Shown here: piece after piece, positions 1,623 through 30,181 of the stretch
Numbering within the stretch: position 1 is the stretch's first letter
Layout: every line of letters begins with the position of its first letter
Assembly: GCA_038826135.1 (NCBI GenBank)
Contig: JAWBON010000003.1
Span: 5,690 to 37,689, forward strand
Length of the DNA: 32,000 nt
Reading direction: 5' to 3'
Source: Candidatus Odinarchaeota archaeon
GTDB lineage: Archaea; Asgardarchaeota; Odinarchaeia; Odinarchaeales; Odinarchaeaceae
Made by a program: the position numbers and the translations under genes
Notes under the pieces: generated by a model
Databases searched by the model: none
Told to the model about the DNA's origin: nothing
Seen by the model: the letters and a program-made list of their open reading frames with translations, nothing else

Positions 1623-1754
1623 GCGGGGGTTCCCAAGCCAGGTCTAAGGGGCAGGACTGAGGAAGGATAAACCTTTAGATCTCCTGTGGACTTCCTTTCA
1701 AAAAAGGAGGCAGAGCGTAGGCCTTCATGGGTTCAAATCCCATCCCCCGCACCA
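1623..1754 (+). tRNA. tRNA-Leu(GAG) with two BHB introns (1663-1680 at 37/38; 1690-1715 in the variable arm), encoded CCA
   Basis: Acceptor stem GCGGGGG/CCCCCGC, T arm ATGGG-TTCAAAT-CCCAT, anticodon stem CAGGA/TCCTG with loop CT-GAG-G|C. After both introns are removed the variable arm GGC-GTAG-GCC forms; mature length 88 nt. Confidence 0.93.
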
Positions 1755-3762: not shown

Positions 3763-3867
3763 GGCTCGGTAGCTCAGCCCGGTAGAGCGGCAGCATGGTA
3801 AGTTGTCGGTCTTGTATGCATTGCATACGAGGATGAATCGTGGGTTCAATTCCCACCCGAGCCTCCA
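3763..3867 (+). tRNA. tRNA-Thr(GGT) with a 28-nt BHB-type intron at 46/47 (3810-3837), encoded CCA
   Basis: Acceptor stem GGCTCGG/CCGAGCC, U73, D arm GCTC/GAGC, anticodon loop AT-GGT-AA, T arm GTGGG-TTCAATT-CCCAC. The intron contains a 9-bp hairpin. Confidence 0.92.
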
Positions 3868-28038: not shown

Positions 28039-28762
28039 CAGTAAATTAAATAAACTTGTAAACCCGACTGGTAAGAAGCGGATAGGTGAATTATTCGAAG
28101 TAGAGGATTTTCTAATACTTTTATCAAAAAACTTGTTAAATAATGTCAGCCCGGAGCTGGCTATGAAATTAGCTGTCAACCAGTTTAAAGGCGATTTAAA
28201 ACCAGTTTTTCAGGAGGCTGTAGAGGGCCTTTACACCGGTAGTAAATGCTTGAAGGATGCGGTTGAACAAATAATAAACTCATTATATAACCAGCAATCC
28301 AAACAGCTACTCCGCTATTTAATGGATCTTATAGACTACGATGCTAAAAAAAGAGCTCAAACAGTTATTAAAACACTCTACCGGTTAAAAGAAAACCAGC
28401 AATTATACTATAGACGACAAAGTATTTTGAAAGCTCAAGAATTTAAAATAAAATTCTTAGTAAATATTATGAGTATAGTGCTAGGAATGGTTTGCTCGCT
28501 AAGCCCGTGGTTTTCAATAACCTCCCTTCTCATAGAACTCGGTAACAGCGTCAACCCGTTCAACATTCAGATAAACCTCCACTCCGCACCCTATGCTTTC
28601 ATAACTTTCCTGTTAATATCAATTTTAAACGCGCACATACTTTACAACACTGTAAAAATCGAGCATGAAATATTATTCACATTAATAGCCCCGCTCCTAT
28701 TCTTAACCGCATATATCTCAGGTAGCATAATACTGTCAACAATTCTACAAGGCTGGGTTTAA
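28019..28762 (+). CDS. TadC-like membrane platform protein
   Basis: VSPELAMK helical T2SS-F-like domain followed by three TMs; downstream of the TadB-like gene. Confidence 0.7.
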   Translation: MRFLKINSKLNKLVNPTGKKRIGELFEVEDFLILLSKNLLNNVSPELAMKLAVNQFKGDLKPVFQEAVEGLYTGSKCLKDAVEQIINSLYNQQSKQLLRYLMDLIDYDAKKRAQTVIKTLYRLKENQQLYYRRQSILKAQEFKIKFLVNIMSIVLGMVCSLSPWFSITSLLIELGNSVNPFNIQINLHSAPYAFITFLLISILNAHILYNTVKIEHEILFTLIAPLLFLTAYISGSIILSTILQGWV

Positions 28763-28796
28763 ATAATCCCGAATATACTAACAAAGGGCTTAAAAT

Positions 28797-28982
28797 ATGA
28801 AGTTCATTAAAAAACTACTAAAAGATCGAGGGGGCTCCCCTCTAGTTGAAGAGGGGCTTTTAGTAGGCTTAGCAATCCTAGCAATAGCGCTTCTAATAAT
28901 ACTGGTTATAAATATATTAAACTGGGCGGGTGTAAACATAGACCAGTTAATCTCAAATATCGGAAGCCTTCTACCGTTTTAA
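28797..28982 (+). CDS. Short Flp-like type IV pilin with class III signal peptide
   Basis: MKFIKKLLKDRGG|SPLVEEGLL followed by a hydrophobic helix: basic leader, Gly at -1, Glu at +5; about 48 aa mature. Confidence 0.8.
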   Translation: MKFIKKLLKDRGGSPLVEEGLLVGLAILAIALLIILVINILNWAGVNIDQLISNIGSLLPF

Positions 28983-29222
28983 AACATTCAGCTGTAAAAG
29001 GCAGCCCCTTGCAAAACCCGCGCATTTAATTTAGATTTAAAACTTGTATAATTCTATCCCTAAATTTTTCGTTATAATGAAGATCTTTTTTAAGAATTTG
29101 ATATATTACTTCGTCGTCAACGGTAAAAACATTCATATTAGCTAATTTCATTTTTGAGAATTTAAATATAATATTCTAAAAAGCGAATATTATGTAATAA
29201 AAATACTAATTAACTTGGTTTA

Positions 29223-29341
29223 TGGTGCTCCGGTCGGGATTTGAACCCGAGTGTCCCCTTATTTTTAGTAATCTAGGGGGCGACTGGGCAGGTTTTTATT
29301 CCTTGAGCCCCTGATGCTTGACCGGACTACACCACCGGAGC
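29223..29341 (-). tRNA. tRNA-Glu(CTC) with two BHB introns (29284-29304 at 34/35; 29253-29272 at 45/46), encoded CCA
   Basis: GCTCCGG/CCGGAGC acceptor stem and Glu-type D arm. After splicing, the anticodon arm is AGGGG-CTCTCGC-CCCCT and the variable loop is AGAC; mature length 78 nt. Confidence 0.9.
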
Positions 29342-29358
29342 GGTTATTAAATATATTT

Positions 29359-29568
29359 TCATTCAGCTGCTTGGCTTTTTCTCTTCTCTAATTGAACTAT
29401 ATGTGTGATATATCCTGCGATCTTATTTCTAACGCTTTTCGATTTAACCTCTGCGATCTCATCTATGATTTTCTTATTTTTTTCAAAATCATCTGTGAAC
29501 TTATCCGCATAGGTTTCGATAAGATCCCATACTAGATTTTTGATCGCGCTGGTTCTAACACGGCCCAT
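29359..29568 (-). CDS. rps17e: Small subunit ribosomal protein S17e
   Basis: MGRVRT..FTDDFEKNK..KSVRNKIAGYIT. GGAGG precedes the ATG at 29568. Confidence 0.96.
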   Translation of the reverse strand: MGRVRTSAIKNLVWDLIETYADKFTDDFEKNKKIIDEIAEVKSKSVRNKIAGYITHIVQLEKRKSQAAE

Positions 29569-29653
29569 TAGATCTCCTCCGATTAAATTTCGGTGCATTG
29601 ATTATTTTTAATAGTGTATTTAAATTTTAACATTAATGTTCAGCTCTGATGGT

Positions 29654-30181
29654 TTAAGGTTGAGGTGTAGCTGGGTTTAATATTTGCTCTATTACTTTTA
29701 TTTTTTTCAAAGCACCCCAAGCTAATATCGCTATAATTGCCGCTATCAGCGCGTTAACCATGTCGATGACTCCTGATGTTAAGGCGATGATAACAGTTCC
29801 CGGGGTTAATATGAACATGATGCTGAAAGTTGGTATGAAACCTCCAATTATCGATGGTGAAATTACAAGCATGATTATTTTAATTGCTGTATTGTTTTTA
29901 TCTTTCATTAAATCTGTTACAATCCCGGCTCCGACCCCTAGAAGCAAGTTTCCTATTAATGGAATCAACCAGAACTCGCCTGAGAAAACCGCTGCGTAGA
30001 TGCCGATTATGAGGCCGGTTAAACATCCAGGCCATAAACCTAATGTTATCCCTGAGAGAATCGGCATTATCATACCGGGGGTTATTTGAACACTATAACT
30101 TATAGGTATGGCTACGGTTCTAAGAGCTAAACCAGTAGCGGATAGAACGGCTATTAAAGATATTTTGAGAGTCGTGTTCAC
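29654..30181 (-). CDS. ECF transporter S component
   Basis: ISLIAVLSATGLAL..ILSGITLGLWPGCLTGLI pattern with six TMs. Confidence 0.75.
   Translation of the reverse strand: MNTTLKISLIAVLSATGLALRTVAIPISYSVQITPGMIMPILSGITLGLWPGCLTGLIIGIYAAVFSGEFWLIPLIGNLLLGVGAGIVTDLMKDKNNTAIKIIMLVISPSIIGGFIPTFSIMFILTPGTVIIALTSGVIDMVNALIAAIIAILAWGALKKIKVIEQILNPATPQP

Follow-up and report, generated by a model that had tools for sequence, protein, structure and literature searches.

Split tRNA genes are a familiar feature of archaea. Non-canonical and multiple bulge-helix-bulge (BHB) introns are established in Thermoproteales and other groups, with position 45/46 among the listed sites (PMC4090602), and the three-intron pre-tRNA-Glu(UUC) of Pyrobaculum calidifontis is one of the known multi-intron genes (PMC4390854, PMC4090602). 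In Methanopyrus kandleri, pre-tRNA-Glu(UUC) carries a canonical intron together with a D-loop HBh' intron, and an (alpha-beta)2 EndA that has a specific loop cleaves the latter in vitro (PMC5829648). As for Asgard archaea, disrupted tRNAs were counted in Odinarchaeota LCB_4 (Kaneta 2018), and non-canonical tRNA introns have been described in two studies (PMC11291895; bioRxiv 10.64898/2026.10.13.758758), the second of which also documents annotator failures. In its main text, this second study selects reference tRNAs by their tRNAscan-assigned isotype and reports intron gains to be mostly recent and class-specific.

We analysed a 32,000-nt stretch of DNA (the window) from an Odinarchaeum-genus Asgard archaeon from a hot spring (source genome of 1.26 Mb, 93% complete; same-genus relatives Odinarchaeia RPA3 and Odinarchaeota J65_bin.29). 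We found that the locus at 29341-29223 on the minus strand is a genuine glutamate tRNA gene with two short introns, one of which lies inside the anticodon. The gene comprises 116 nt up to the discriminator A73 (29226), followed by an encoded CCA (29225-29223). Exon 1 (29305-29341) covers positions 1-34, i.e., the acceptor strand GCTCCGG, the D arm, the 5' anticodon strand and C32, U33 and C34; intron 1 (29284-29304, 21 nt) sits at position 34/35; exon 2 (29273-29283, 11 nt) covers positions 35-45, with the anticodon bases U35 and C36, the 3' anticodon strand and A44 and G45; intron 2 (29253-29272, 20 nt) sits at position 45/46; and exon 3 (29223-29252) covers positions 46-76, with the T arm, the 3' acceptor strand, A73 and CCA. 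An earlier sequence-only reading had placed and drawn the first of these introns correctly while leaving the strand unstated, which a sequence check supplied, and had overlooked the second. The gene for ribosomal protein eS17 (29359-29568, minus strand) ends 17 nt upstream, and eS17 precedes the tRNA gene at each of the six Odinarchaeales loci that we checked; judging from this arrangement, the two genes may be co-transcribed. When both introns are removed computationally, the result is a cloverleaf of 75 nt plus CCA, with a 5-bp anticodon stem, a 7-nt loop containing U33 and a 4-nt variable loop, which ARAGORN reads as Glu(ctc). We estimate the probability that this gene encodes a tRNA-Glu(CUC) with two protein-spliced archaeal introns, maturing into a 75-nt plus CCA tRNA that reads GAG, at about 0.94.

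Intron 1 reads A-AGG-AATAAAAA-CCT-GCCC-AG on the minus strand (29304-29284) and lies between C34 and U35. Its GCCC (29289-29286) forms a central helix with exon GGGC (positions 29-32; 29310-29307) in which all four pairs are Watson-Crick, accompanied by bulges TCA and AGT, each with the predicted boundary after its second base, and by a 3-bp inner stem AGG/CCT. Because the outer exon helix has 1 bp in intron 1 (G28-C36) and 0 bp in intron 2, neither has the outer and inner helices of the strict hBHBh' motif, and both belong to the relaxed HBh' class; the BHB initially proposed for intron 1 therefore stands in its central helix and bulges, with its type corrected. When every possible intron of 11-59 nt was enumerated, a single one had four Watson-Crick central pairs and an intron stem of at least 3 bp, namely 29304-29284, and none of 200,000 shuffled intron 1 sequences reached four central and three inner pairs at the same boundary. 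Likewise, the best parse of an automated intron/cloverleaf parser comprised the same two introns and gave Glu(CTC). Removing intron 1 in silico reproduced the predicted loop CUCUCGC, with anticodon CUC, on a 5-bp stem. Together with the orthologue register described below, the enumeration and the shuffles bear out a 21-nt intron that splits the anticodon at 34/35.

The unspliced loop C-U-C-A-A-G invites a different assignment, in which the gene encodes tRNA-Leu(CAA) interrupted at the canonical 37/38 position by an intron of equal length and 29272-29253 is a class II variable arm; the A73 discriminator is compatible with this, as is the variable region, which measures 24 nt if intron 2 is kept. 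However, the 37/38 register has one of four central pairs here and none or one in all orthologues, and it yields CAA or CAT depending on the lineage. The body is 53-59% identical to the Leu tRNAs of the same genome and does not have the make-up of a class II Leu(CAA) tRNA, and a true Leu(CAA) gene lies elsewhere (G000:C16 9741-9625), as it does in genomes G001, G002 and G005. A leucine assignment would also leave the genome without a Glu(CUC) tRNA despite 9,769 GAG codons among 21,002 Glu codons (the remaining 11,233 being GAA). It is thus already contradicted, and we regard its probability as negligible.

As a glutamate tRNA, the spliced body shares 91% identity with an intronless Glu(UUC) gene and 83-84% with intronless Glu(CUC) genes; within its own genome it shares 84% with Glu(UUC) and 77% with Asp, each of which has a separate gene (Glu(UUC) on contig C75 and Asp(GUC) on C7, alongside Leu(CAA) on C16). 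The YUC anticodon, the Glu-type acceptor and D arm and the 4-nt variable loop are those of archaeal tRNA-Glu. The sequence-only reading had named the acceptor stem GCTCCGG and a short variable loop as Glu-type features; the former is present as described, while the latter appears only once intron 2 is removed. Searches turned up no other Glu(CUC) gene, either in the own genome, which at 93% completeness could by itself still conceal one, or in the single-contig relative G002; the check for a further copy, suggested with the original proposal, came out in its favour. In a codon alignment of 53 homologous ORFs, Glu occupies a fraction of 0.49 at GAG compared with 0.46 at GAA, and Leu 0.012 at GAG. 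Register, body identity, the Leu(CAA) gene elsewhere, the lack of a second Glu(CUC) gene and the GAG alignment all support the assignment of 29341-29223 as tRNA-Glu(CUC) through a 34/35 intron, so that the apparent Leu(CAA) is indeed Glu(CTC), as had been suggested.

We found 22 Glu(CUC) orthologues with an insertion at 34/35 in Odinarchaeia, Jordarchaeia and Baldrarchaeia (Odinarchaeum, 4; sister family f2, 3; Jordarchaeaceae-type f7, 5; Freyarchaeum-type f19, 6; Baldrarchaeia f15, 4); given that these genomes are kin, they count as five families in three classes and not as 22 independent cases. Each of the 22 forms four central and at least two inner pairs in the 34/35 register alone, and the product there is always CUC, while neighbouring registers give CUC, GUC, AUC, UUC, CAC, CAA or CAU depending on the lineage. 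The intron varies in length (16-31 nt) and in its last base (G, C, A or T), whereas the flanking exon bases are invariant. In Baldrarchaeia the exon helix is GGCC and its intron partner GGCU or GGUC (GGYY), compared with GGGC/GCCC in the Odinarchaeum gene, a compensatory change that affects both strands of the helix at position 31. Eight Glu(UUC) genes from f7, f19 and f15 also show four of four pairs only at 34/35, unlike the Glu(UUC) gene of Odinarchaeum, which has a canonical 37/38 intron.

The same comparison bears on the possibility that intron 1 is cut one base earlier, at 33/34, to give tRNA-Asp(GUC). The last intron base is G in the own genome alone, and there a 33/34 cut does give the loop C-U-G-U-C-G-C; in relatives, though, this register gives CUC, AUC or UUC, and in the gene itself it has three of four central pairs and no inner stem. 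The true Asp(GUC) gene on C7 moreover has G73, whereas 29341-29223 has A73. We therefore consider an aspartate tRNA extremely improbable.

Intron 2 (29272-29253) pairs through the helix CCCU/GGGG (three Watson-Crick pairs and one GU) with a 3-bp inner stem UUA/UAA and bulges AGA and ACA, again divided after the second base, a motif that arises in shuffled sequences at a rate of about 1e-4. Among the orthologues examined it is limited to the genus Odinarchaeum, where the motif is present in four of four genomes; the f2 orthologues lack it and have a 4-nt variable loop and a 53/54 intron instead. The own Glu(UUC) gene (G000:C75:471-347, minus strand) has a 30-nt 37/38 intron and a 20-nt intron at 45/46, the same second position as in Glu(CUC), and its 45/46 intron shows the compensatory helix CCCA/UGGG. 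This compensation, together with the f2 orthologues without intron 2, supports the 45/46 register. As slippage of CCCCC against GGGG is possible, the exact register is improbable in ViennaRNA ensembles (0.01 for the full precursor).

It is conceivable that intron 1 is spliced and intron 2 kept as a long variable arm, giving a CUC tRNA that might be leucylated in a nev-tRNA-like recoding of GAG. ARAGORN still folds a cloverleaf when only intron 1 is removed, and the anticodon-stem and BHB2 conformers are less than 1 kcal/mol apart. Against this, GAG aligns to Glu much as GAA does and to Leu in 1.2% of cases, the D arm is that of class I, and the 45/46 HBh' motif recurs in all four genus genomes and, compensated, in Glu(UUC). 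Retention of intron 2 with leucylation accordingly seems exceedingly unlikely. Slightly more room, albeit very little, is left for a pseudogene or unsplicable relic, with GAG read through wobble by Glu(UUC). Both intron motifs are relaxed; tRNAs with U34 are generally able to read G-ending codons. Yet the exons are identical in the four Odinarchaeum-genus genomes while the intron loops differ, every stem is intact, the gene encodes its own CCA and three classes retain the motif, making a relic very unlikely. The reading as a functional, doubly interrupted tRNA-Glu(CUC) is the one we retain.

The uninterrupted arm pattern CTCTCR was found in none of the five families with the 34/35 intron (Odinarchaeum, f2, f7, f19 and f15), whereas it is common in others (28 of 31 in f4, 6 of 7 in f20), and the Glu(CUC) anticodon of Atabeyarchaeia is uninterrupted. 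When 185,579 species genomes were scanned for the Odin/Jord/Frey form, 13 matches came up, all from those lineages by name or sequence identity. In a separate scan, most matches outside f1, f2, f5, f7 and f19 looked like chance and were left out, and pattern matches in f6, f16 and f31 were discarded as they were not tRNA genes. The AAGG...CCT stem is common to Odinarchaeales and Jordarchaeaceae. One explanation of this distribution is a single old insertion present since the ancestor of Odinarchaeia, Jordarchaeia and Baldrarchaeia and retained because it is useful, for instance if splicing gated anticodon formation or wobble-base modification; taken jointly, the old insertion and such a use are doubtful. 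Sequence comparison of this kind does not separate the alternatives, as the common position would fit descent, transfer or repeated gain alike. Should the old-insertion explanation be true, it would contrast with the mostly recent gains reported for Asgard tRNAs, and the 34/35 position in three Asgard classes provides a concrete character for testing the age of their tRNA introns.

Both introns have a 4-bp central helix, 3-nt bulges and an inner flanking helix, and their removal restores a cloverleaf; in addition, the genome encodes a broad-specificity EndA and RtcB. The EndA alpha subunit, whose ORF is split over contigs C48 and C72, is closest to A. pernix EndA (alignment to 3p1z_B, E 3e-29) and has a CSL/L1-type loop in which the K44 position is Lys; contig C45 encodes a second subunit and C16 RtcB. 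The RtcB frame itself (G000:C16:2586-5357) is 995 aa long and contains an insert of about 1.4 kb, probably an intein, close to profile position 49/50. Cleavage of HBh' introns is reported to be restricted to (alpha-beta)2 and epsilon2 EndAs, and the L1 loop to be conserved in Asgard archaea (PMC5829648). In the processing pathway that we propose, intron 1 would pair with the 5' anticodon-stem strand (29-32) and intron 2 with the 3' strand (40-43), each forming a relaxed bulge-helix-bulge (HBh'), and the precursor would therefore have neither anticodon stem nor anticodon; consistent with this, the predicted probability of the anticodon stem in the precursor is about 0. Since enzymes of the same type cut HBh' introns (PMC5829648), we propose that each bulge is cut behind its second base by the (alpha-beta)2 EndA, which has a specific loop of crenarchaeal type, and that RtcB then joins C34 to U35 and G45 to A46, giving the predicted mature junctions ...GGGGCUC-UCGCCCCC... 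and ...CUAG-ACUCGGG.... The product would be a 75-nt plus CCA class I tRNA with anticodon CUC, presumably aminoacylated with glutamate and reading GAG.

With regard to the order of removal, the modelled probability of BHB1 in the full precursor is 0.91 (37 °C) or 0.71 (60 °C), and it drops to 0.73 and 0.26, respectively, in the absence of intron 2. These values, from a folding model that represents BHB2 poorly, hint that intron 1 might leave before intron 2. A search for the stretch among sequencing runs recorded as RNA gave no match. Assembled contigs from three hot-spring runs, compared with 28700-29900, contained no junction for tRNA-Glu(CUC). The joints that they did contain were rejected as splicing evidence, as their other letters are those of the anticodon arms of Glu(TTC/CTC) genes without introns, which most likely belong to other organisms. 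The gene is a mechanistically expected substrate of a broad-specificity archaeal EndA, and its C34/U35 junction makes a sharp test substrate for the Asgard enzyme because a one-base error alters the amino acid.

An intron inside the anticodon also alters the isotype called by software. On the raw window, ARAGORN without introns and an Rfam scan both miss tRNA-Glu(CUC), while ARAGORN with introns allowed correctly calls Glu(ctc) with a 21-nt intron, and a genome-wide RF00005 search finds the gene at 38.6 bits. The warning, made from the sequence alone, that annotation could assign the wrong isotype thus did not apply to the gene itself when introns were allowed, but it did apply to its Freyarchaeum orthologue, published as Met(CAT). 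We identified our genome G040 as the published complete Freyarchaeum genome because the published tRNA coordinates coincide exactly with its tRNA genes. Its entry 31, 'Met CAT 1545739-1545581' (PMC11291895 Supp. Data 4; G040:C1, L164), starts with GCTCCGG and represents the Glu(CUC) orthologue. The intron as published (1545685-1545670) corresponds to the 37/38 register, three bases off, with one of four central pairs, compared with four of four at 34/35; the miscall is Met rather than Leu because this intron begins with AUG, and the elongator-Met-type gene is entry 35. The Freyarchaeum Glu(UUC) gene (G040:C1 1790195-1790046, L152), which has a 34/35 intron, is missing from the published list, which is therefore left without any Glu tRNA. 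A low-scoring 'Ser AGA' entry in the same table (25.2 bits) may be another miscall. In these lineages, genome-quality tRNA counts are biased, as are intron censuses that rely on the isotype called by software.

Several other tRNA genes are interrupted as well. In the window, tRNA-Leu(GAG) (1623-1751, plus strand) is interrupted by an 18-nt intron at 37/38 and by a second one, of 26 nt, where the variable arm begins, and tRNA-Thr(GGT) (3763-3864, plus strand) has about 28 nt inserted into its variable region and is output by ARAGORN as '???' or Asp. Elsewhere in the genome, the 179-nt tRNA-Leu(TAG) (G000:C75:2840-3018, L062) parses with four introns; it is conserved across the genus (orthologues L060, L061 and L063), and neither Rfam nor ARAGORN at its default threshold detects it. 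The initiator-Met (G000:C25:7153-7309, 157 nt) and elongator-Met (C5:12986-12808, 179 nt) genes probably have three to four introns each. Two further Glu(CUC) genes, L135 (G043:C6) and L136 (G058:C52), are about 250 nt long and have an intact anticodon, with apparently at least four insertions (D loop, 37/38, variable region and T loop). Searches of the own genome (93% complete) did not recover the genes for Asn, Cys, His and Ile2(CAT), which may lie on missing contigs or be too interrupted for detection. As the automated census misparsed eMet, Trp, Val-CAC, Ile, Ser and Tyr, only well-resolved parses were used. Among 36 parsed introns, the best identity of any in another isotype to intron 1 was 0.64, a value that shuffles reach in 7% of cases; we thus rejected a transposed intron family of the Thermoproteales type, i.e., a near-identical intron in other isotypes of the same genome. 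The AAGG...CCT start that intron 1 has in common with the Leu(GAG) and Leu(TAG) introns was likewise rejected as a family, being not significant.

Compared with the HBh'/hBH introns of Thermoproteales and other TACK archaea, the introns described here are alike in being short, with a 4-bp central helix and 3-nt bulges, and in lying outside 37/38; also shared are two introns per gene, position 45/46 and an (alpha-beta)2 EndA with a specific loop. They differ in the 34/35 position inside the anticodon and in having no significant cross-isotype family. Position 34/35 is absent from the archaeal intron-position list that we compared, itself incomplete and exclusive of Marck & Grosjean 2003 and Sugahara 2007 and 2008, and phrase searches of the literature for such an intron gave no match, '34/35' itself not being a searchable term. 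The pre-tRNA-Glu(UUC) of Methanopyrus kandleri is similar as a two-intron Glu tRNA with an HBh' intron, yet its introns occupy other positions, whereas the Odinarchaeum gene has no canonical intron and one of its introns splits the anticodon. The Asgard introns reported previously (PMC11291895; bioRxiv 10.64898/2026.10.13.758758) come from the same phylum, comprise multiple non-canonical introns with BHB boundaries, are missed by software and, like ours, are known from sequence and not from in vivo splicing. Both studies focus on Freyr-, Jord- and Atabeyarchaeia, a scope outside which the Odinarchaeum gene falls, and the main text of the preprint makes no mention of Odinarchaeia or Glu; relative to it, the 34/35 Glu position is common to three classes and alters the called isotype. 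The type of intron is therefore already known, as a non-canonical BHB intron found in Asgard archaea among others, and what is added here is its distribution across three classes and a documented case of mislabelling.
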